From: a virus
Lineage: Duplodnaviria > Caudoviricetes
DNA: 24,266 bases
IMG/VR virus record: IMGVR_UViG_3300017912_000320
Coordinates: 1-24,266 of that record
Direction: 5' to 3' (one strand)
Shown here: positions 10 to 21,704 of the stretch, piece by piece
Layout: each line of letters starts with the position of its first letter
How positions within the stretch are numbered: position 1 is the first letter of the stretch
Position numbers and translations under genes: made by a program
Notes under the pieces: generated by a model
What the model was told of the DNA's origin: nothing
Database searches by the model: none
What the model saw: the letters and a program-made list of their open reading frames with translations, nothing else

Positions 10-222
10 ATGTTCTATGCAAGTTTGATTGGCTGTCACTTGATGATGAAGAACGCCTGTTTTGAAATGAAAGATGACAGGGGTCCTTATGAAACTGAAA
101 AGCAATGTGAAGAACGTATCGATGAAATGCTGGCAGACACAATAAAAATGTGGCTTCAATTTAAATCACCGATAGCGGTAACAGGATGGAAGTGTGAGAA
201 AAAAGATGGCGTCTCAACCTGA
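10..222 (+). CDS. Small hypothetical phage protein (70 aa)
   Basis: ORF track; GAGGT Shine-Dalgarno at 1-5 upstream of ATG at 10; overlaps the next ORF as expected in an operon. No function recognised. Confidence 0.7.
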   Translation: MFYASLIGCHLMMKNACFEMKDDRGPYETEKQCEERIDEMLADTIKMWLQFKSPIAVTGWKCEKKDGVST

Positions 223-373
223 GTGCTGGTCATGTGGACATCAGCTAATATGGGGCGGTGATCATGATAGTGAAGATGCAGATGGCAAAGAATATATTGA
301 ATCAAACCTGCACTGCCCCAACTGTGATGCCTTTTATCTGTACTTTCAGCCCCTAGAAGGACCAGATCAGTGA
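206..373 (+). CDS. Small zinc-ribbon-like protein (55 aa), not in ORF track
   Basis: Hand translation: MASQPECWSCGHQLIWGGDHDSEDADGKEYIESNLHCPNCDAFYLYFQPLEGPDQ*. Two CxxC pairs; fills the gap between 10..222 and 370..564; its TGA overlaps the next GTG start (GTGA at 370-373). Confidence 0.8.
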   Translation: MASQPECWSCGHQLIWGGDHDSEDADGKEYIESNLHCPNCDAFYLYFQPLEGPDQ

Positions 374-564
374 CAACACAAACGTGGTATTATCAAAAGT
401 GCTGGCGAGATGGCGGCGCACCCTTCTGGGATACCTATGTTCATGCAGAATGTAGGGTGATTAGGCAACAAGAAAGAAAAAAACGTGATTCTCAGCGACC
501 TGAAGGTACTATGACACAGCTATCGTTCATGAACGCCCTGAGAATCGATGTTAAAAATCAATAA
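370..564 (+). CDS. Small hypothetical protein (64 aa)
   Basis: ORF track; GTG start coupled to the upstream TGA. Its 3' end overlaps the tail of the minus-strand ArfA-like ORF. Confidence 0.5.
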   Translation: MTTQTWYYQKCWRDGGAPFWDTYVHAECRVIRQQERKKRDSQRPEGTMTQLSFMNALRIDVKNQ

Positions 565-696
565 AAACAACCACATAAAAAAAGAAAGGGTTCTGCCCTT
601 CCTTCTGTAAGACCCCTTACCTTTGCGGGGTTTGACTATTTTTAGCCTGAATCGTCGTAGTTTCAGGCTTCTTGCGACTGGGTTTTTGGTTCGCAT
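520..696 (-). CDS. arfA: ArfA-like alternative ribosome rescue factor (58 aa full length), not in ORF track
   Basis: Hand translation: MRTKNPVARSLKLRRFRLKIVKPRKGKGSYRRKGRTLSFFMWLFLLIFNIDSQGVHER*. AGGAG Shine-Dalgarno 7 nt upstream of ATG. Contains N-x5-L-x4-FR-x7-KGKGSYxRKG, which aligns without gaps to E. coli ArfA residues 14-43 as recalled from memory; basic core and hydrophobic tail. Confidence 0.75.
   Translation of the reverse strand: MRTKNPVARSLKLRRFRLKIVKPRKGKGSYRRKGRTLSFFMWLFLLIFNIDSQGVHER
577..606 (-). terminator. Rho-independent terminator ending the late operon, inside the ArfA-like ORF
   Basis: Minus strand reads AGAA-GGAAGGG-CAGAA-CCCTTTC-TTTTTTT: 7-bp stem with one G-U pair, 5-nt loop, U7 tract. 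Lies where the two transcription directions converge. Confidence 0.7.
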
Positions 697-830
697 GCTA
701 CTTCTCCTTGACAGCAGTCATCAACTATCTGACCACATGTAACACATTGTTCGTGTCCGTGTACATAAGCTGTCTTCAGATTCCCCTGACACCGTGGGCA
801 GCGAGGTGAGCAGTGTTCCTTACTCTCCAT
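663..830 (-). CDS. Small Cys-rich protein (55 aa), not in ORF track
   Basis: Hand translation: MESKEHCSPRCPRCQGNLKTAYVHGHEQCVTCGQIVDDCCQGEVACEPKTQSQEA*. 8 Cys including two CxxC, HGH and CC; start overlaps the lysozyme 3' end, end overlaps the ArfA-like start. Confidence 0.75.
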   Translation of the reverse strand: MESKEHCSPRCPRCQGNLKTAYVHGHEQCVTCGQIVDDCCQGEVACEPKTQSQEA

Positions 831-1281
831 CTGCCAGTGCCCTCATGCGTGTTACCAAACGACGTGCGCGGTTCGGCACCTGCGTATACCACTTCGAGTC
901 GACCATCTGATCGGCTGCTTCATTGAAGTTTCGTGCGTCTACCCCTGCCTTCATTCCGACAAACTTTGACAGGCGGGGATACCCCAGGTTGAACATCATG
1001 TTTGCAATAATAAGCTGACATTCTTCTGGTAGGTCATTCCAGTCTGGGTACAGACGGTGACAGTCCTCAAGTGTAACAGCGATGTCCAACTTGAACACGT
1101 TGTCCACACGTTCCTGTTCAATGACTGTGCCTACTGGTAGGCCGTACTCAGGGTCGTCTTTTTTAATGAGGTGACCAATTCCAAAAGTTGGTAAATTTAG
1201 GTGGTCCAAATATATTTCGTACTTGCAGCCCTCGTCGGAGGCAAGCTCCTGACGTAGCTGGTCTATGGTTGTAGATTTCAT
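820..1281 (-). CDS. T4-type lysozyme / endolysin (GH24 muramidase)
   Basis: DEGCKYEIYLDHLNLPTFGIGHL has the T4 lysozyme E-x8-D-x5-T catalytic spacing and GIGH; NMMFNLG and SKWYTQVPNRARR match the T4 lysozyme C-terminal motifs. ATGA overlap with the upstream gene. Confidence 0.93.
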   Translation of the reverse strand: MKSTTIDQLRQELASDEGCKYEIYLDHLNLPTFGIGHLIKKDDPEYGLPVGTVIEQERVDNVFKLDIAVTLEDCHRLYPDWNDLPEECQLIIANMMFNLGYPRLSKFVGMKAGVDARNFNEAADQMVDSKWYTQVPNRARRLVTRMRALADGE

Positions 1282-13294: not shown

Positions 13295-14101
13295 TTATAT
13301 AGTCCCAAATGCTGTCACATCATTAGCTGATGTAATTTGTCCGTTAGTGCCAATTTTAGCTACGGCTGTTGTTGTGCCGCCTGTTGTATAGCTAAAGACT
13401 AATTCATTACTAACAACGCTTAAAGTCCAATCCCCCAAGTTAAACGTACTGCCACTTATCGGCACAGTAGAAAAACTTAAAGTACCAGATCCATCTGTCT
13501 GTAAATACTGACCGTTCGTGCCGTCAGCCGTGGGATAGTTTAAACTTGCTGCCTGCAATTTAGATATAGCAACTGTACCTGTGCCATTAGGTGTTATGTT
13601 AATGTTGCCGTTGCTTGTAGAAACAATCGAGTTTCCGTTAACGTCCAAATTTCCTCCAAGCTGAGGAGTTACGTCGCCGACAAGATCGGACGGAAGCACA
13701 CGAACATTTGCGGTTGAACCTATGCCATCACTATATATCCAAGCAGAGGCTCCCGCTAAAATAGTAACATTGTTGCCACTGCCTTGTGTAAACACAACCG
13801 AATGTGATGTTGTATTAGAAACTAGATACAGTTTAGATTTGTCGTTTGGAAGAAGTGTAATGGTGTGAGTGCCACTAATGGTTCCTGCGGTTAAATACAA
13901 AACTTTATAGTGACCTTCAGATTTAGCCCCGTCAGTAACACTTAAATTACTAGAAGTTCCGTCTAACTGAAGATTTTTAAACCCAGCTAAGTTACGGTCA
14001 ATGATATCAAAATTTTCGTTTACGGTTTCGCCCCAAGAACCAGCTTGTTCGCCAGAGCCTGGTTTTTCTATACCGCTAGAATCTGTGTAGGTACTTGCCA
14101 T
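13295..14101 (-). CDS. Tail fibre protein (268 aa)
   Basis: N-terminal GEQAGSWGETVNENFDIID anchor-type motif; fibre shaft motifs TPQLGGNLDVNG, NGNINITPNGTG and YPTADGTNGQYLQTDGSGTLSF. Confidence 0.7.
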   Translation of the reverse strand: MASTYTDSSGIEKPGSGEQAGSWGETVNENFDIIDRNLAGFKNLQLDGTSSNLSVTDGAKSEGHYKVLYLTAGTISGTHTITLLPNDKSKLYLVSNTTSHSVVFTQGSGNNVTILAGASAWIYSDGIGSTANVRVLPSDLVGDVTPQLGGNLDVNGNSIVSTSNGNINITPNGTGTVAISKLQAASLNYPTADGTNGQYLQTDGSGTLSFSTVPISGSTFNLGDWTLSVVSNELVFSYTTGGTTTAVAKIGTNGQITSANDVTAFGTI

Positions 14102-14821
14102 TTAAACCACCTTGTTTGTCCATGTTTCAGACGATGTGCCTGCGTTTATTTCTGTCCAGCTATCGCCTGTGTGTGTTACCTGTGTCCAGCTTTCTGGTGT
14201 GCCACTTGCGTCAACCTGTACCCAGAGTATAGCACCATCTGCCGTCATAATAAACACAGAGTCCATTGTCTGCGCGGCAAAGCGCAAGAACCCGCCCAAA
14301 GCTTCGACAACATCAAACTGAGAGTCCATACTCAGCCCTGTTCTAAGTAGCAAACCACCTAGTGGGTCGTAGTCGAATTGTGCGGTTTGGTCACTGAGCA
14401 AGTAAAGTATAGCTATGGCAGCGGATGTTTGTGTGAAGTTAAAGTCTACTTGAGCTACGCCGGAGACTACTTTGATTGCTGTGCTTGTCTGTGTGAAGTT
14501 AGAATCAACTGATGCGTCAGCAGAGGCTATAAAGTTTGCCGCCGTTGTCTGATCAAACTGAAAGTCTAAATCAGCTACGCCTGTAGCAAATCGCAAGCCT
14601 TGTGTGGTCTGTGTAAAGTCAGATGTAATTTCTATTTCAGCAATAAGTGTACCCGCTGCTGCGGATATCTTAGAGAAAAAGGCGTCAACCGACATACTAC
14701 CGCTAAGTATGGCGGATAAGTCTGTTGACTGTGTGAAGTTTGCGTCAAGCGACTCAGACCCAAAAAGCACAATACCTTGGGTAGCAAGCGGGTTTTCCGA
14801 TATCGACAGTTCGCCGAACAT
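14102..14821 (-). CDS. Virion protein built of about 20-aa repeats with Trp-repeat C-terminus (239 aa)
   Basis: D-x-x-F-T/D-Q-T-like motif recurring about every 20 aa (about 9 times); C-terminal W-T-x repeats. Confidence 0.6.
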   Translation of the reverse strand: MFGELSISENPLATQGIVLFGSESLDANFTQSTDLSAILSGSMSVDAFFSKISAAAGTLIAEIEITSDFTQTTQGLRFATGVADLDFQFDQTTAANFIASADASVDSNFTQTSTAIKVVSGVAQVDFNFTQTSAAIAILYLLSDQTAQFDYDPLGGLLLRTGLSMDSQFDVVEALGGFLRFAAQTMDSVFIMTADGAILWVQVDASGTPESWTQVTHTGDSWTEINAGTSSETWTNKVV

Positions 14822-15345
14822 CAGCCTGCTATTTCCATTACATAAAAAGTTGATGAGGTGCGAGAATAATTATTTAAACCTCGCCTATTTATGTACCATG
14901 TTTCACCACCTGCTGACACCACACGCCATTGCAACTTATAAACTAATGCGTTGGTAGAATTAGGGCTATCAATAAACATATGACTTCTTGGGGAATAACG
15001 ACCATTTGTGCCATACCAATGTTGATTGAATGTATTAATGGTGTCTGCGCCAGACCCTTGCCCAATTTCCGTGCTATCTCTTAAAAGTTTCATAAGTGCG
15101 CCGACACTACCACCGCTACTGCCCATCGAGCCAAATGAATACTGAATTAGTATTTTGCTACTTGCTGCCCTTGGGGTAATTGTCGCCGTTGCAAACGCAA
15201 TATCAGCAAAACTTGTTGAGTCCGTGGTCACAACACTAGTTGATGAATTTGATACCACTTGCAAAATAGAACCAGAAGGCTGTTTGGAAGACGGAACTGT
15301 AGTGCTTGTACCTAACAGATTGGCAAGATTACGGGCGTTACTCAT
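14821..15345 (-). CDS. Short fibre-tip protein (174 aa)
   Basis: MSNARNLANL N-terminus plus a GSILQV..ITP..SSKILI..DSPNST..Y domain shared with 16340..16888 and 20009..20545. Confidence 0.65.
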   Translation of the reverse strand: MSNARNLANLLGTSTTVPSSKQPSGSILQVVSNSSTSVVTTDSTSFADIAFATATITPRAASSKILIQYSFGSMGSSGGSVGALMKLLRDSTEIGQGSGADTINTFNQHWYGTNGRYSPRSHMFIDSPNSTNALVYKLQWRVVSAGGETWYINRRGLNNYSRTSSTFYVMEIAG

Positions 15346-15348
15346 AGC

Positions 15349-15747
15349 TTACTCCGGCTTATCAGGCCACACCACATCGTCAAGTGATGAGAAGGTTTCG
15401 GTAATGTCGCGCAAATCCTGACGATAGGCTGTGCGTTCTGCGGACATGGTAAGATCAGACGATGCCCACCAATCTGTTTCAGCGATACGGCGATTACGCT
15501 CTTCGCGCAACAGTTTCATCGGCTCCAGTTCGTTAAGTTCGTTAAGCTTTGTTTTGACCGTACCCCATGTTATTCCCGCCTTTTCCCACGCATCTGAGTC
15601 ATTGGACAGTATAGCTGTGTTATTGCCATCCACACCCACTACAAGACTAAAGCCTGCGTTAAAACTAATCGCGTCTGTAGGCTCGCCACGAAGTACAAAC
15701 TGGCAGTTTGGGTCTAGTGCTAAGATTGCTTCTGTTACTGATGCCAT
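15349..15747 (-). CDS. Tail fibre assembly chaperone-like protein (132 aa)
   Basis: C-terminal LREERNRRIAETDW...YRQDLRDIT...VVWPDKPE, typical of phage tail-fibre assembly chaperones. Confidence 0.75.
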   Translation of the reverse strand: MASVTEAILALDPNCQFVLRGEPTDAISFNAGFSLVVGVDGNNTAILSNDSDAWEKAGITWGTVKTKLNELNELEPMKLLREERNRRIAETDWWASSDLTMSAERTAYRQDLRDITETFSSLDDVVWPDKPE

Positions 15748-15755
15748 GATTTAAC

Positions 15756-16343
15756 CTATTGATATGCTATGCGTATATAACTGTCGCTTTCATCAAAAGT
15801 GCCAGTGGCTAGTGAAAATTCAAATTGTGTAAGTTCAGCAGACAGTTCTTTGTAACCAGTAAAACGAATAAAATAGCCGGGACTATCTTGTATCGCCATT
15901 CCATCACAAGTCCATTTGTTGCCATGAACTCTAAACAATTCGCCTTGAATCATTAATACATTACTATTAGCTGTCCATGATGACGGCCCCCAAGCACCAG
16001 TTGAAGTACCACCATAAACAGAAGCCCCACCTGTAGCAGCAAAAACATCAATCCCTTGATAACCAGAGGTTTCAATGCCCCCACTATCACCAATTCGGAT
16101 TTTTGGCGCAGCAGTACCTGTGCCGCTTGACTTCCAAACACCAAATTTAATAATATTTACGCCACTAGGTATTCCTGTAAATGTTCTTGAACTTTGACCA
16201 TTTAATGTTTGGATTGCAGGAAAAGTAAAACCAACACCCGTTGGTGTATTATTAAAATTAACTACACCACTGCTATCTATCGTTAGCGCAGTGTTCGAGT
16301 TCGTTGGGTCTTGAATTTCGGTGACTTTTAATATGCTGGTCAT
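15756..16343 (-). CDS. Short fibre-tip protein (195 aa)
   Basis: Shared N-terminal module MTSILKVTEIQ..TALTIDSSG plus a beta-rich domain not repeated elsewhere in the window. Confidence 0.65.
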   Translation of the reverse strand: MTSILKVTEIQDPTNSNTALTIDSSGVVNFNNTPTGVGFTFPAIQTLNGQSSRTFTGIPSGVNIIKFGVWKSSGTGTAAPKIRIGDSGGIETSGYQGIDVFAATGGASVYGGTSTGAWGPSSWTANSNVLMIQGELFRVHGNKWTCDGMAIQDSPGYFIRFTGYKELSAELTQFEFSLATGTFDESDSYIRIAYQ

Positions 16344-16888
16344 GCACCAATCTCCATTAAAGTCATTGTTGAAACAGGAGAGCCAAAGTAACTGGTTGCA
16401 TCAGTGTCGTTATGAGTTCTATTAACGTAAACAGAATACGTTGTGCTAAAACCACCAATGTCTATACTGTATTGAACAGCACTGGTCGTAGAAGGAGAGT
16501 CTAAATATTCAATTGCCCCTGCTATCATATCATACTGTGTGCTGTTTCCGCTATAGTACTGACAATAATCAAAGGTAACTCGCTTTCTGTTAGAGCCGCG
16601 CTGGTTGCCCAAGGCATCGTCAATAGCGGTTCCGTCTCTTAAAATTCTTCCCCTAAATGAAAAGTATTGTGTAGCCAGACATAAAGAAGCTTTTACTAAA
16701 ATTTTACTGCTAGTTGACTTGGGTGTGATATTACACCTCAGTCCTGTAACTTCAGCAAAATTCGGGCCAATGGAAGTTGAGAAGGTGTCCTTAAAAACTG
16801 TCTGTTGCACCTGCAACACATGACCTGGAATCTCCACCCCGTTGTTTGTGGTCTTCTCATTTATTGTATCTACAAATAATGTTGACAT
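16340..16888 (-). CDS. Short fibre-tip protein (182 aa)
   Basis: N-terminal MSTLFVDTI module plus the ITPKSTSSKILV..DSPSTTSAVQY domain. Confidence 0.65.
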   Translation of the reverse strand: MSTLFVDTINEKTTNNGVEIPGHVLQVQQTVFKDTFSTSIGPNFAEVTGLRCNITPKSTSSKILVKASLCLATQYFSFRGRILRDGTAIDDALGNQRGSNRKRVTFDYCQYYSGNSTQYDMIAGAIEYLDSPSTTSAVQYSIDIGGFSTTYSVYVNRTHNDTDATSYFGSPVSTMTLMEIGA

Positions 16889-16896
16889 AACTTGTC

Positions 16897-17445
16897 CTAT
16901 GTTGCCGCTAGCTTTTCAAAAACAACGTAAGTTCGTAACTGATTGGCGTTGCCGCCCATAGTACCTGCAGCATGGGTTTGAATACTAAATTTTGCTCTAG
17001 CAGTTGATGCGTTAGTCACGTCAACATACATAACGGTAGTCGTATCACAATATTCACTTGTGGCCGCATTTTGAAAAGCATAAGCTCTGTCAGTAAAAGT
17101 AGACCCACTATCTGTACTAAACCTATTGATTATACCAAAATAATAGCCCCCGTTACTTCCCTGCCAATATAATTTAGCAGTACATCTCCATTTTCCTGTG
17201 CTAGGAAAAGTAAAAATGCCTGAACTGTGGCTCATGCCTGTACCAATTTTTTCCCAATCAACAGCCCATCTAGTAAGAGTAGTAATGTCTTGTGTTGTAG
17301 AACTAGAAATTGTTACATTTGCAGGAAGATTCCAAATGTCTAACTCTGTAGTATTGGGCATACTTACATACCCACTACTGTCAATCGTCATGGCATTTGT
17401 ACCTGCCGCAGTTCTTATCTGGTCTACGTTTAATATAGAAGCCAT
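16897..17445 (-). CDS. Short fibre-tip protein, possibly C1q/TNF-like (182 aa)
   Basis: N-terminal MASILNVDQI..GTNAMTIDSSG module; SGIFTFPSTGKW resembles the C1q GxFTxPxxGxY strand. Confidence 0.6.
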   Translation of the reverse strand: MASILNVDQIRTAAGTNAMTIDSSGYVSMPNTTELDIWNLPANVTISSSTTQDITTLTRWAVDWEKIGTGMSHSSGIFTFPSTGKWRCTAKLYWQGSNGGYYFGIINRFSTDSGSTFTDRAYAFQNAATSEYCDTTTVMYVDVTNASTARAKFSIQTHAAGTMGGNANQLRTYVVFEKLAAT

Positions 17446-17452
17446 TTATGCC

Positions 17453-18181
17453 TCACAGTATTGTCAGATTACCATTGACGGTAATCGCAGTTGATGTGTC
17501 TATGGTCAACGGACCAATCGCCAATGCGTTCTTGGTTGATGCTATTGTAGTATCTTCGTCTACTGTTTGTCCATTGGTACGGAATACAGCCGTATCAACC
17601 GTGGTGTTTGTGGTCTGAAACTGTGTTGCTGTAATCTCAGCCGCAAACGTACCGCCGCTGGACTTGCTAACTGTATCTGTCACAGTAAACGCACGGAAGG
17701 CACGGATGACTAACTCATCATTTACCGCTGCACCAGAGCCAAGTGTAATCGTATCACCATTGCTGGCAGTAAAGTCTGAACTGTCGAGGTGTACACCATT
17801 TAGATATACATCTACATCGTTACCAGAGAAGGCCAGTATTGCACCATTAGCATCTGCACCTGTAAACGCAGTCTGACTTGCTGTTGCTGTGTACTTAAAC
17901 AACTGCATCGCGTAGCTGGTGGGTTGGTCTACTGCGCGACCAAAGTAGCGAACTTGTATTACATCGCCGTTAGCTGGAGGTGACGAAAAGGTCAGGGTTG
18001 TGCCTTGCGCTGTGTATGCCTTGCCTATCCCTGGCTCTTGGATGACGTTACCAATAACAACCATAATAGCTTCGCCGCTGACAACGCTTTGCGCCAGCGT
18101 AAACGCAGTTGCGCTTCCGGTACCTGTAAAGGTCTGAAAGCTAATGTCACCTACATTTGGGTCAATGCCTATATATGCCAT
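17453..18181 (-). CDS. Fibre connector protein (242 aa)
   Basis: MAYIG N-terminus and two tandem beta modules (the first shared with 19135..20007); C-terminal FRTN..GPLTI..ITVNGNLTIL motif shared with 21489..21704. Confidence 0.65.
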   Translation of the reverse strand: MAYIGIDPNVGDISFQTFTGTGSATAFTLAQSVVSGEAIMVVIGNVIQEPGIGKAYTAQGTTLTFSSPPANGDVIQVRYFGRAVDQPTSYAMQLFKYTATASQTAFTGADANGAILAFSGNDVDVYLNGVHLDSSDFTASNGDTITLGSGAAVNDELVIRAFRAFTVTDTVSKSSGGTFAAEITATQFQTTNTTVDTAVFRTNGQTVDEDTTIASTKNALAIGPLTIDTSTAITVNGNLTIL

Positions 18182-18540
18182 TAGTCAGAGTCCCCTGTTT
18201 TTGGGTTTGCGTCTTTAACAGCTTGAATTTGGGCCTCCATATCAGCGGGAAAAACCCCCGCCTTGAACAAGGCATCAAGTTGGTCCCCGATAGCTGGATA
18301 ACTGGACACCCGCCTTGAAACATAGTCAGAGTTTCTACGAGCCAAAAACTCAGTAGCTGTCAAGAAACCGTCTAATCGAATAGTACCTTCACCGTCTTCT
18401 CTAGGCATGTCTTTGCCCATATCAAAATCATCGGTAACTGTGTACTCAGTAAGGCTAGAATCCGCCACGAGTGCCTCATCCCGCTTAGAGCTAGTGGTTA
18501 CAATTCGGTCTTCTTTTTCATTTATGTAAACATATAACAT
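18181..18540 (-). CDS. Putative fibre assembly chaperone (119 aa)
   Basis: Acidic protein with helical C-terminal Y..RR..YPAIGDQLDAL..IQAVKDANPK, directly after a tip gene; function inferred from position. Confidence 0.5.
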   Translation of the reverse strand: MLYVYINEKEDRIVTTSSKRDEALVADSSLTEYTVTDDFDMGKDMPREDGEGTIRLDGFLTATEFLARRNSDYVSRRVSSYPAIGDQLDALFKAGVFPADMEAQIQAVKDANPKTGDSD

Positions 18541-18552
18541 TTTGGATTACCT

Positions 18553-19125
18553 TTAAAAAGAAGACCAAGAAGACCAAGAACCACCATACCTATAACGCAT
18601 ATATCTATTATTGCTGTGATATGAGAAAGCTAATTGTGTCATGTTTCCTCCTCCCGTTTTCTGATTATATTCAAAAGTAAAGGGGTGAAAATAATAACTT
18701 CCTCCGGGGCCATTTGAGTGGGTTCCAAGCAATAATGTTTGACCGCAACCTGACCTTGCGTTTGTAGCGTCGTTCCAGTCGGTAGTACCAGCCGTGCTGA
18801 CCGCGCCTATTCCACCAATAAGCTGTCCATACTGACTAATTTGTGCATCATAATTACTCGAACTGCCTTTAAATACTTTATCGCCAGAACTTTCGATACG
18901 CATTGTTTCATCTGTTGTGGAGCCATCTGTTTTTTTAAAAATAATTTCTCCATCAGAGCTTCCATCTCGTGCGGTTATTATTACCGCACCGCTGGTTGAC
19001 TGAATGGTGACAATGTCATCTGTACCTGATGAATCTGTCATTGTGATGGTTGGGTCATCACTCGTAAGAGTTAGTCCATTAGATAAAGTACCAACTGCGC
19101 CAGAACTTATTTTGCTTAATGGCAT
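18553..19125 (-). CDS. Short fibre with knob-like tip (190 aa)
   Basis: MPLSKI N-terminus; shaft motif ETMRIESSG; C-terminal TQLAF..YMRYRYGGSWSSW resembles pyocin-knob-type fibre domains. Confidence 0.6.
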   Translation of the reverse strand: MPLSKISSGAVGTLSNGLTLTSDDPTITMTDSSGTDDIVTIQSTSGAVIITARDGSSDGEIIFKKTDGSTTDETMRIESSGDKVFKGSSSNYDAQISQYGQLIGGIGAVSTAGTTDWNDATNARSGCGQTLLLGTHSNGPGGSYYFHPFTFEYNQKTGGGNMTQLAFSYHSNNRYMRYRYGGSWSSWSSF

Positions 19126-19134
19126 TTCAAACTC

Positions 19135-20007
19135 CTATGATGTCAAATAGCTAAAGCTAATATAAAACTCATGGTTAGACTGCAATAAATTATGAGTTAT
19201 TGTAGACCACGAACCATTAGCTCTAATTTTAAAAAGCCGAAAGTTTGAAGCTGAACCAGCAATATACATGGTAATGTCATCTTCGTTACTGATGTTAACA
19301 TTTTGGTGCATCACAACACCTGTTCCTCCCCAACCAGATGCAGACGCATAAGGCAGTCCTTCTACATAAAGTGCATTACCAGATGAATCAGTAAAAGCAT
19401 ATACTTGACACCAAATAGTAACCATGTTGCCTATTTTAACATAGTGTGCGCGATTATAAGAAAGTGAACCATATGAAGATGTGGGCGTCCAAGTGCCTTG
19501 CTCAAAATCAGTAAGGGTATTAGTGGTAACAGTTTGCCCAGTAACGGTAGAAGAACTAAGATTTAATTTAATCCCAGCATCTGCTGTAATAACTCCTGTG
19601 CTATCTAATGTGCCAGCAATGTCTATGTTTGTATCTAGTTTTGCAGATGTAACAGCATCGTCTGCAATCTTGGCGGTAGATACTGCATCAGCCGCCAGCT
19701 TCGCAGTTGTAATAGAAAGGTCGGGTGCTTCTAGCCGTGTTGTTACTTCTGCCTGACCGCGATAGATAACGTACACGTTGCCTGTGCCTAATGGCGGAGC
19801 CTCGTCAAACGTCAGGGTAGTTCCTGTGGCTGTGTATGACTTACCCACCCCAGGCTCCTGCTGCACGTTGTCAACGAATACCTCTAGCTCCTCACCAGTG
19901 TTCACGGCGCGGTTAAGTGTGAACGCGGTCGCCGAACCTGTGCCGTTGAAGGACTGGCTCGTTGTCTTTGTTAACTGCTTATTTGGTTGTGCGCCGATGT
20001 ATGCCAT
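19135..20007 (-). CDS. Tail fibre protein with MAYIG module, 10-aa shaft repeats and tip domain (290 aa)
   Basis: N-terminal module shared with 17453..18181; ITTAKLAADA-VSTAKIADDA-VTSAKL repeats; tip motif EQGTWTP..YVKIGNMV..GLPY. Confidence 0.7.
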   Translation of the reverse strand: MAYIGAQPNKQLTKTTSQSFNGTGSATAFTLNRAVNTGEELEVFVDNVQQEPGVGKSYTATGTTLTFDEAPPLGTGNVYVIYRGQAEVTTRLEAPDLSITTAKLAADAVSTAKIADDAVTSAKLDTNIDIAGTLDSTGVITADAGIKLNLSSSTVTGQTVTTNTLTDFEQGTWTPTSSYGSLSYNRAHYVKIGNMVTIWCQVYAFTDSSGNALYVEGLPYASASGWGGTGVVMHQNVNISNEDDITMYIAGSASNFRLFKIRANGSWSTITHNLLQSNHEFYISFSYLTS

Positions 20008-20008
20008 G

Positions 20009-20545
20009 TCACACCTTTATTTCTGTGGCTGTCATTGAATATTCACCACCACCATGAACACTATAACAAGTTCCAGTTCCATAACCGATGCTGTGATACC
20101 ACTTGTAAGTTATTGCAGAAGTTGTGTTCGGAGTATCTATATGACGAGCAGAGTGTGGCCCATAATGACCGCTGTTATTATCGTAATGATAAGCCAATCC
20201 ATAATAATTTGGCACTGCGTAATTAGTTGAACGTGGAACAATAGCTGTGCTGTCTCTGTAAAGTTCCCAAACCAAAGCAATACCAGCATTATAAAAAACC
20301 ATAGTAGAGAAAACTTCTACAAGTATTTTGCTGTTTGAAAATTTAGGGGTAATTGTAACTTGGGCGTTGTCATAGGAAGTGCCATCACCTAGTTGTGCGG
20401 CTGTTCCTGAACTGGTTTGTATGTGTGAAGATGAATTTGTAAAAGCTTGAAACGTCTGTATCTGGACAATAGACCCAGCACCCATGTTAATTGCAGAACC
20501 ACCAGAAGAATCTTGGATAGTGTCGACTTTGATTATGCTAGTCAT
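20009..20545 (-). CDS. Short fibre-tip protein (178 aa)
   Basis: MTSIIKVDTIQ module plus the GSIVQI..ITPKFSNSKILV..DTPNTTSAITYK domain. Confidence 0.65.
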   Translation of the reverse strand: MTSIIKVDTIQDSSGGSAINMGAGSIVQIQTFQAFTNSSSHIQTSSGTAAQLGDGTSYDNAQVTITPKFSNSKILVEVFSTMVFYNAGIALVWELYRDSTAIVPRSTNYAVPNYYGLAYHYDNNSGHYGPHSARHIDTPNTTSAITYKWYHSIGYGTGTCYSVHGGGEYSMTATEIKV

Positions 20546-20554
20546 CCTGTTCTC

Positions 20555-21046
20555 CTACCTAACCAAACCAATAGTGCCAAAGGTATATCTATTAGCACCG
20601 CTACCACTATAAAAATTTACACCATTATTATTTTGCCAATAAATTACGTCATTCGCTAAACAAGTAAGAAGAACAGACCCACGGTTCACCCTATGTTCCT
20701 CATAAAAACGGGCTTGAATTGAATTTACTCCTGAACGGCCTCTGTAAACAACAATTTCGTGGGCTGCATCTGCGTTTATAAGCCCACCATGAGAAACCAT
20801 ATAAAGGCCATCTACAGGGCAAGTAAATTCCCAGTTAGTGGTACTCCATAAAGATGAGTCACCATCTGCCACATTATCGAATTGCATACGACCAGCAGAC
20901 ATAGTTTCGTAACTACCAGTACCACCTCCAAAATCAACGATAATATAGGGTCTTTGTGAAATTACAACACGACCACTGCTATCAATGGTCATAGCATCTG
21001 TGCCGTTGGTGTGCTGGATAGTTTGTACACCTAATTCGCTTGCCAT
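20555..21046 (-). CDS. Short fibre-tip protein, C1q-like (163 aa)
   Basis: MASELGVQTIQ..GTDAMTIDSSG module; FDNV..FTCPVDGLY is a C1q-like signature. Confidence 0.65.
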   Translation of the reverse strand: MASELGVQTIQHTNGTDAMTIDSSGRVVISQRPYIIVDFGGGTGSYETMSAGRMQFDNVADGDSSLWSTTNWEFTCPVDGLYMVSHGGLINADAAHEIVVYRGRSGVNSIQARFYEEHRVNRGSVLLTCLANDVIYWQNNNGVNFYSGSGANRYTFGTIGLVR

Positions 21047-21064
21047 GACTTACCTCTAATTAAA

Positions 21065-21496
21065 TTATGCGACCATAAACGTACAAGCACATGATATCCA
21101 ACTTGAACTTGGTGCGCTTTGTGTTATTACATTTCCGTTTTGGTCAATATCTAATCTAGCTAAATTATTAGCGTTTTGAACTGCAAGAATTATTCGGGTC
21201 GGCGGTCGATAACCAACGGGTAACTGAAAAATAGTGGTATTAACTACATTTTGACTCGTAATACCTTGAATATTAACAATATTACCGATTTTACGATATC
21301 GTACAGGACCATATGTGGTTGTGTCATAGTGTGTAAAATTGTTTAAAAGTGTAGCTGTAATCCAACCACTATCATAATCACTACTATTAAATGTTACATC
21401 GCCACTAAATGTTACATCGCCACTACTATCAATCGTTAGCGCAGACGTATTAGCGGTCTTACCATATATTTCATCTACAAGAATACGACTAGACAA
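21065..21496 (-). CDS. Short fibre-tip protein (143 aa, TTG start)
   Basis: SSRILVDEI..SALTIDSSG module; DSGW..YRKIGNIVNIQG..FQLPVGYRP tip motif; GGAG 9 nt upstream of TTG. Confidence 0.65.
   Translation of the reverse strand: MSSRILVDEIYGKTANTSALTIDSSGDVTFSGDVTFNSSDYDSGWITATLLNNFTHYDTTTYGPVRYRKIGNIVNIQGITSQNVVNTTIFQLPVGYRPPTRIILAVQNANNLARLDIDQNGNVITQSAPSSSWISCACTFMVA
21388..21425. repeat. Perfect 18-bp tandem duplication (SGDVTF x2)
   Basis: taaatgttacatcgccac taaatgttacatcgccac ta on the plus strand. Confidence 0.95.
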
Positions 21497-21704
21497 CGGT
21501 CAACACTCCATTAACGGTAATTGTTGCGGAAATGGTTATCGGTCCAAAAGCCCCTGCGTTTTCTGTGGAGGCCACAGTTAAATTGCTAGTAATGCTGGTA
21601 GCGTTTGTGCGAAACGGGTTAGTGCTAGTCGATGCCGCGATGTCTGCGTTATGCACACCGCCGTCTTTAATCTGATTTGTGTCAATCGTGCTAAGTGCCA
21701 TCAA
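21489..21704 (-). CDS. Minimal fibre connector protein (71 aa)
   Basis: MALSTI N-terminus (compare MPLSKI of 18553..19125) joined almost directly to the FRTN..GPITI..ITVNGVLTVV C-terminal motif. Confidence 0.65.
   Translation of the reverse strand: MMALSTIDTNQIKDGGVHNADIAASTSTNPFRTNATSITSNLTVASTENAGAFGPITISATITVNGVLTVV

Follow-up and report, generated by a model that had tools for sequence, protein, structure and literature searches.

A phage gene of the ArfA family with a terminator-like hairpin inside its reading frame: a predicted feedback-controlled ribosome rescue factor

Does a phage gene of only 58 codons encode a factor that frees stalled ribosomes, and what would the part of the reading frame beyond its ArfA-like core be for? 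The question is raised by the end of a run of minus-strand genes in the window (the whole 24,266-nucleotide stretch of marine phage DNA analyzed here), where a preliminary description, made from the sequence alone, had proposed a minus-strand ORF encoding an ArfA-like ribosome rescue factor. The features of this locus are as follows.

520 to 696, minus strand: ORF, short ArfA-family gene of 58 codons plus TAG; PF03889 match above the cut-off
704 to 709, minus strand: Shine-Dalgarno-like AAGGAG, 7 nt 5' of the ATG
607 to 624, minus strand: KGKGSY motif, residues 25 to 30 (E. coli positions 34 to 39), the mRNA-channel binder in E. coli ArfA
580 to 606, minus strand: in-frame hairpin of 11 bp with a loop of 5, found by folding, beginning at codon R31 and kept in the clade
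577 to 583, minus strand: U-run of seven after the last G-C pair, where the transcript is predicted to end before any stop codon
577 to 696, minus strand: predicted coding part of a stop-less mRNA, 39 to 40 residues going by the terminator position
520 to 576, minus strand: read-through tail, unconstrained; its end in relatives lies ~32 to 90 codons past the start of the motif
663 to 830, minus strand: ORF of 55 aa upstream, containing two CxxC pairs and sharing 34 nt with the start of the ArfA ORF
820 to 1281, minus strand: phage lysozyme, an upstream member of this run of genes (PF00959; PHROG endolysin)
370 to 564, plus strand: last convergent plus-strand small ORF, ending 16 nt from the hairpin and overlapping the read-through tail

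Translation of positions 696 to 520 returned exactly the 58 amino acids quoted in the preliminary description, and the Shine-Dalgarno sequence claimed for the ORF was found at 709 to 704. The ATG together with an AAGGAG or AGGGAG site is retained in 14 of the 14 clade loci examined, with the caveat that the same bases are Gln-Gly-Glu codons of the overlapping upstream ORF. The ArfA (DUF331) profile PF03889 matched the ORF at 28.2 bits (E value, 1.3e-6; cut-off, 25.5), the match spanning residues 16 to 35 only; an NCBIfam search of the ORF gave no match. All six matches in a PDB sequence search were ArfA (E value, ~0.01), and three clusters among the ESM Atlas matches listed carry the ArfA label. 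The alignment to E. coli ArfA that had been proposed as gap-free holds against the sequence in NC_000913.3, at an offset of +9 and with 14/31 identities over ORF residues 5 to 35. The score of the ORF in this comparison, 67, was reached by 0 of 20,000 shuffles (best shuffle, 50), and the ORF ranked best of the 423 six-frame stretches in the window; residues 5 to 22 alone matched in register (P value, 0.0024). At the level of the family, a profile of 33 sequences aligned with E. coli ArfA without gaps (probability, 97; E value, 6e-11). Variants among the 14 clade loci number 12 synonymous and 5 non-synonymous in codons 12 to 30, and the core of the ORF is evidently under purifying selection. 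An AlphaFold model of the 35-residue core (helix at 6 to 11, the rest extended; mean pLDDT, 72; pTM, 0.29) was uninformative. Collectively, profile, motif, and regulatory layout mark the ORF as real and ArfA-like and place it in a short ArfA subfamily.

The minus strand of the window carries tail, virion, and lysozyme genes, and the ORF closes this minus-strand run, behind the virion and lysozyme genes, in agreement with the proposed place at the end of a late operon, where "late" is inferred from gene content. In the survey of related phages that had been suggested, the ArfA ORF was conserved and its location after the lysozyme gene held. The upstream 55-aa ORF is also present in relatives and gave no match in Pfam or PHROG searches. 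On its other side, the ArfA ORF faces small plus-strand ORFs; the closest relative has DNA polymerase A there. Small Cys-rich, zinc-ribbon-like ORFs border the junction (663 to 830, minus strand; 194 to 373, plus strand). Upstream of the lysozyme gene lies a sigma-70-like site (1380 to 1351, minus strand; 10/12, extended -10), kept in 5 of the 14 clade loci searched, some of which are too short to contain it; its reading as a promoter was dropped as not above chance (3 found, 1.8 expected). Farther along (14100 to 21500, minus strand), small tail-fibre-like genes follow one another in a long series, and three of these match phrog_6942. The adaptor protein and polymerase are nearest to those of HTVC023P, HTVC027P, 023Pt_psg01, and DSL-LC04, which makes the phage HTVC023P-like; identity to these nearest cultured phages is 36% at best for the adaptor and 46 to 52% for the polymerase. 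The GC content of 44%, compared with ~26% for a SAR11 locus, does not assign a host. An Rfam search of the window gave no match. In a 52-kb relative (G007), no tRNA or tmRNA gene was found; it carries an Rfam Mu-gpT-DE RNA (RF03012, at L576:5456-5508).

The part of the frame beyond the ArfA motif was where the preliminary description needed correction. TLSFFMWLFLLIF, which reads as a hydrophobic segment of the protein, corresponds to the 3' arm and U-run of a terminator-like hairpin, followed by unconstrained read-through. Because the hairpin and U-run sit inside the frame, the "hydrophobic tail" would be read-through of a predicted terminator. As a functional or conserved hydrophobic domain, TLSFFMWLFLLIF was rejected: codons 41 to 58 differ among the 14 clade loci by 5 synonymous and 40 non-synonymous variants and are without constraint. 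Codons 31 to 40 hold 0 synonymous and 7 non-synonymous variants, and the pattern along the ORF passes, as judged from these variants, from protein constraint to RNA constraint to none. The in-frame terminator, which had been missed, is the strongest functional clue at this locus. Both the stem-loop in the frame and the poorly conserved hydrophobic tail that characterize ArfA genes are found here, at sequence level. Published accounts of arfA and brfA describe a stem-loop that leads to a non-stop mRNA, the product of which is removed by trans-translation unless this is overwhelmed (as far as PMC8012679, PMC3989581, and PMC6881298 were available). As for arfA and brfA, the active product here is likely a peptide of ~40 residues made from a stop-less mRNA.

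How much weight can this hairpin bear? A terminator scan of positions 1 to 1400 of the window found a single terminator-like site, the one inside the ORF; chance alone would give about one such site in every 1.4 kb, so the weight of the hairpin rests on its conservation. The hairpin of the window is itself modest, with a core of -7.8 kcal/mol and a z of -1.4 for folding of the whole region. Contigs from four RNA-library runs of one study cover the locus patchily and give no end signal, and such contigs show neither strand nor ends. Since MAFFT left unrelated hairpins out of register, comparison was made by folding each hairpin instead. The sequences of the hairpins differ between loci, and they start at the same RK codons throughout.

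To define the sample, a pool of 340 viral loci was built from the window, 20 further loci, 79 new loci from the best 80 of 180, and at least 120 from each of two pattern scans. Collapsing duplicates and dropping one locus without the motif left 221; a score of 35 bits or more was reached by 169 of these, 167 of them with sufficient flank. Overall, 45 of these 167 loci (28 + 17) had an in-frame terminator. Among stand-alone loci with tails of at least 18 codons, 28/65 had one (expected, 1.0 by full shuffle and 1.6 with the 5' arm fixed), as did 17/49 fused loci (expected, 0.3), 0/52 early-stop loci, and 0/1 open-ended locus. The detector was refined once; its first version gave 20/65 and 19/49. 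Viral loci are related by descent, 14 belonging to the clade of the window; after clustering at 80% identity, in-frame terminators were found in 8/43 clusters, with ~2 expected. The predicted stop-less layout recurs in distinct phage lineages and in some cells. A tblastn search of cultured phages with the 40-aa core gave no match; a longer homologue as the query did retrieve cultured carriers. HTVC027P, HTVC034P, CRP-212, Cr30, RsoM2USA, and pf16 all stop early, without the hairpin, and in the further matches CRP-13, HTVC204P, and ZZ1 the motif was not found with the pattern used.

The survey also revealed several other arrangements. At 49/167 viral loci, the ArfA module is fused within a basic protein, of ~100 to 160 aa in the examples viewed; fused examples such as L041, L045, L048, L050 (positions 1387 to 1797), L065, and L081 have other small modules on both sides, with GG-type linkers. 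Seventeen of the 49 retain the hairpin and a weaker U-run right after the module, and leaky termination or cleavage could release the ArfA module from the fused forms. A canonical gammaproteobacterial-type ArfA, with the N-terminal part and an early stop, is encoded at L416, L433, L475, L519, L525, L528, and L573, the last being phage pf16, whose copy lacks annotation. Pelagiphage members (L021:7769-7945, L084:1411-1626, L089, and L090) are extended at the N terminus by a stretch containing a DGxSR...W/F..IF module, and this module also yields short matches in T7-like pelagiphages. Low-scoring relatives (L439, L453, L474, L487, L493, L500, and L521) have the KGKGSY tail only, in longer proteins with acidic stretches after it, and several of them sit on large contigs.

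The subfamily extends to cells. A GTDB scan found 416 relatives, 77 of the best 80 being labelled Pelagibacter or its family or order, and a profile search placed 972 clusters at 50% identity in the short-ArfA subfamily. L110 and most of L102 to L181 are SAR11 chromosomal short ArfA genes of ~33 to 40 aa with their own stop; that at L110:2480-2599 is flanked by a winged-helix regulator and a pfkB kinase and passes the Pfam ArfA profile. Across low-GC SAR11-like loci, the gene's own stop came no more than 15 codons from the motif in 77/81 and an in-frame terminator was found in 0/81. Ending at its own stop without a terminator, the SAR11 short ArfA looks constitutive. RF1, RF2, SmpB, and a two-piece tmRNA are present in three SAR11 genomes of 1.3 to 1.4 Mb, where RF2 retains the switch-loop Trp; ArfB, sought in the same three genomes, was absent, with only two GGQ proteins found. 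In a sample of Alphaproteobacteria, 18/401 genomes matched short ArfA. ArfB was found in 4/18 carriers versus 137/401 of the sampled genomes (the 137 include unpublished G042 and G217), and mutual exclusion of short ArfA and ArfB across the Alphaproteobacteria is unsupported by these numbers. Long in-frame hairpins with U-runs occur in cellular genes as well, at L199, L204, and L205 (one lineage) and at L209. In the first three (about 300 to 1700), the gene immediately upstream of short arfA encodes an MscS channel; in E. coli, arfA is adjacent to mscL (NC_000913.3). L177 has the same in-frame hairpin design; a primase-helicase is found nearby, and the locus may belong to a prophage.

To consider how so short a protein might act, its residues were compared with those of E. 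coli ArfA. The account in PMC5378476, as available to us, has the basic C-terminal part of that protein plug the empty mRNA channel and assigns the opening of RF2 to an N-terminal minidomain; A18 lies packed between C1914 and I11; L19, L24, and F25 bind RF2 W319; the A18T variant binds without release; and truncation at residue 47 leaves the protein active, whereas truncation at 40 does not. The role given to the KGKGSY segment, in the available part of PMC6299226, is binding in the mRNA channel. The motif and basic tail are found in the phage ORF as KGKGSY-RRKGR, and the predicted product reaches E. coli position 48 to 49, past the sufficient 47. The minidomain is not found: R2, R9, S10, and R15 stand at I11, A18, L19, and L24, and only F25 is kept. 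For this reason the ORF is classed apart from plain ArfA. Two caveats of the preliminary description, that residues 1 to 9 of ArfA are absent and that Arg occupies the Ala18 position, were confirmed by the alignment; they are, however, not defects of this copy, being typical of a large subfamily that includes the SAR11 chromosomal genes. Of 144 motif-bearing top representatives, 136 have Ala at position 17, 122 have Lys or Arg at position 18 (E. coli Ala18), 137 have Leu or Val at position 20, and 137 have Phe or Tyr at position 25; at the positions of Leu19 and Leu24, most residues are polar. An N-P-x-A-K-x-L helix is strongly conserved, and the protein starts no more than 5 residues from the conserved Asn in 66/144. 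Given the subfamily-wide lack of the RF2-activating residues A18, L19, and L24, we infer rescue activity from other features: the constitutive-looking SAR11 gene, the repeated stop-less layouts, the single Phe of BrfA, and the active 40-aa ArfT. These suggest that the subfamily is a re-shaped activator, not a dead one.

Several known systems resemble the phage gene in part. With E. coli ArfA (YhdL, PF03889; beta- and gammaproteobacteria), it shares the gap-free register, N14, L20, F25, KGKGSY, R41-K42, and a basic tail, together with an in-frame hairpin and a hydrophobic read-through tail that is dispensable. It differs in being phage encoded, in lacking residues 1 to 9, and in not keeping A18, L19, P23, and L24, the conserved Ala of the short subfamily standing one place earlier; its product would have ~40 aa rather than 52 to 55, and its hairpin starts right at the RK codons and resembles an intrinsic terminator, in contrast to the long RNase III stem of E. 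coli arfA. The SAR11 chromosomal short ArfA has the same subfamily motif and 48 to 64% identity over the core, but ends at its own early stop without a terminator. Two phage genes have been annotated as ArfA or ArfA-domain genes, HTVC027P gp30 (PMC12753301) and Citromicrobium phage RXM g10 (PMC8953757), in each case by annotation only in the text available; RXM g10 is likened to the ORF by that annotation alone. HTVC027P, among the nearest cultured relatives of the phage group, has the same subfamily motif in gp30, which differs by a 25-residue N-terminal extension, a stop codon 13 codons past the beginning of the motif, and the lack of an in-frame terminator. The available text of PMC12753301 calls gp30 highly expressed, while its supplement row gives 0 to 66 raw fragments and lists the gene as Late; we count gp30 only as transcribed, at a low level. 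BrfA of Bacillus subtilis also has an intrinsic terminator inside the frame; the available account (PMC6881298) reports experimental demonstration of its tmRNA feedback and the use of a single Phe against the RF2 Trp. ArfT of Francisella tularensis is described in PMC6299226, as far as available, as an active 40-aa protein that has a KGKGS-like stretch and whose gene lacks a terminator, as in the early-stop members of the short subfamily. In contrast to the ORF, which passes the ArfA profile, BrfA and ArfT are set apart from ArfA in these papers, with which the comparison is by their descriptions only.

We therefore propose, with a probability of roughly two in three, that the ORF encodes a feedback-controlled ribosome rescue factor, predicted from sequence to free host ribosomes stuck on stop-less mRNA. 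RNA polymerase would stop near position 577, and late transcripts of the gene would end without a stop codon. As long as the host has spare tmRNA-SmpB capacity, the nascent peptide would be tagged and destroyed; when truncated mRNAs accumulate late in infection, the 40-residue peptide would escape, so that it would accumulate only once host trans-translation was saturated. The KGKGSY-RRKGR tail would then enter the empty mRNA channel, and a peptide strand and F16 would engage a release factor of class I, RF2 being the likeliest; the release factor would free the stalled chain and return the ribosome to phage protein synthesis. Without the N-terminal minidomain of E. coli ArfA, the peptide must open the release factor in a manner that differs in detail. 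Counting against this proposal, most phage members, the cultured carriers examined, and 81/81 SAR11-like loci are without an in-frame terminator. The subfamily-wide loss of the E. coli residues tied to RF2 opening, the modest stability of the window's hairpin, and the lack of clear exclusion of ArfB also weigh against it.

The peptide might instead bind the empty mRNA channel, and perhaps RF2, in the manner of ArfA(A18T), and thereby block tmRNA tagging or park ribosomes and RF2, to the benefit of the phage. Such a role fits the loss of the activating patch (I11, A18, L19, and L24) alongside a channel-binding tail that is better kept than any other part, as well as fusion of the module into larger basic proteins at 49/167 viral loci. 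In SAR11, however, genes with the same pattern are chromosomal and look constitutive, and a plug there would carry a cost; the strong conservation of the N-P-x-A-K-x-L helix and of F/Y25 suggests contact with a partner, and the stop-less layout would fit a back-up rescuer better than an inhibitor. We regard this alternative as unlikely, though it is the most credible of those considered.

Still less probable is that the gene is of the rescue type but its hairpin is a plain terminator between convergent operons, the stop codon having been lost by accident and tmRNA feedback being absent. The window hairpin does lie at the meeting point of two gene runs and may double as an ordinary terminator; L020 and L087 are likewise at convergent junctions, several hairpins have a T-run on the opposite strand too, and one RNA-library contig, from a relative, passes across the site (contig-level data from one study). 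Against this, a terminator precedes the stop at 26 stand-alone loci with enough flank and follows it at only 2 of the 89 stand-alone loci that lack an in-frame site, which argues against a plain operon-end terminator. The hairpin also stands mid-frame in 17 fused genes, with same-strand genes next in the examples viewed, and its start is always at the same codons.

Finally, a generic basic nucleic-acid-binding or virion core peptide, with an ancestral or compositional likeness to ArfA and no role at the ribosome, is improbable: the ORF is short and rich in Lys and Arg, its Pfam match is confined to residues 16 to 35 with none in NCBIfam, and fused forms adjoin other small basic modules, yet no composition-matched shuffle in 20,000 equalled its match to E. 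coli ArfA, its N-terminal part is in register, and cellular members and a stop-less layout would be unexpected for a virion peptide.

We suggest more tentatively, as an idea we hold somewhat short of even odds, that a distinct minimal ArfA subfamily opens the release factor without the minidomain, that it is an overlooked back-up to trans-translation in SAR11, that several marine phage lineages have put the gene on a stop-less transcript end and thereby sense tmRNA saturation and turn on ribosome rescue of their own, and that fused forms may yield the same peptide by leaky termination or cleavage. Phage-encoded ArfA is not new as an annotation, as RXM and HTVC027P attest. In a full-text literature search, whose coverage did not extend to subscription journals, no paper was found on a stop-less layout of phage arfA and no description of a SAR11 short ArfA gene. 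In the parts available, papers place ArfA only in beta- and gammaproteobacteria (PMC6881298), a survey table gives arfA in 0/2,376 Alphaproteobacteria (PMC11633108), and PMC13434031 mentions only host ArfA, rising during DRT2 defence. The surprising part is the stop-less phage layout and the link to SAR11, phage ArfA as such being already known.

If the proposal is true, a gap would be filled, in that SAR11 genomes without ArfB carry a short ArfA despite the survey figure of 0/2,376. With an ArfA that naturally lacks the activating minidomain, how RF2 opens without a stop codon becomes directly testable; were the peptide a plug, phages would have in it an inhibitor of trans-translation. As a feedback-controlled rescue factor, it would mean that abundant marine phages do more than use host ribosomes: with a feedback-regulated factor of 40 residues, they would also manage ribosome quality control in the host.
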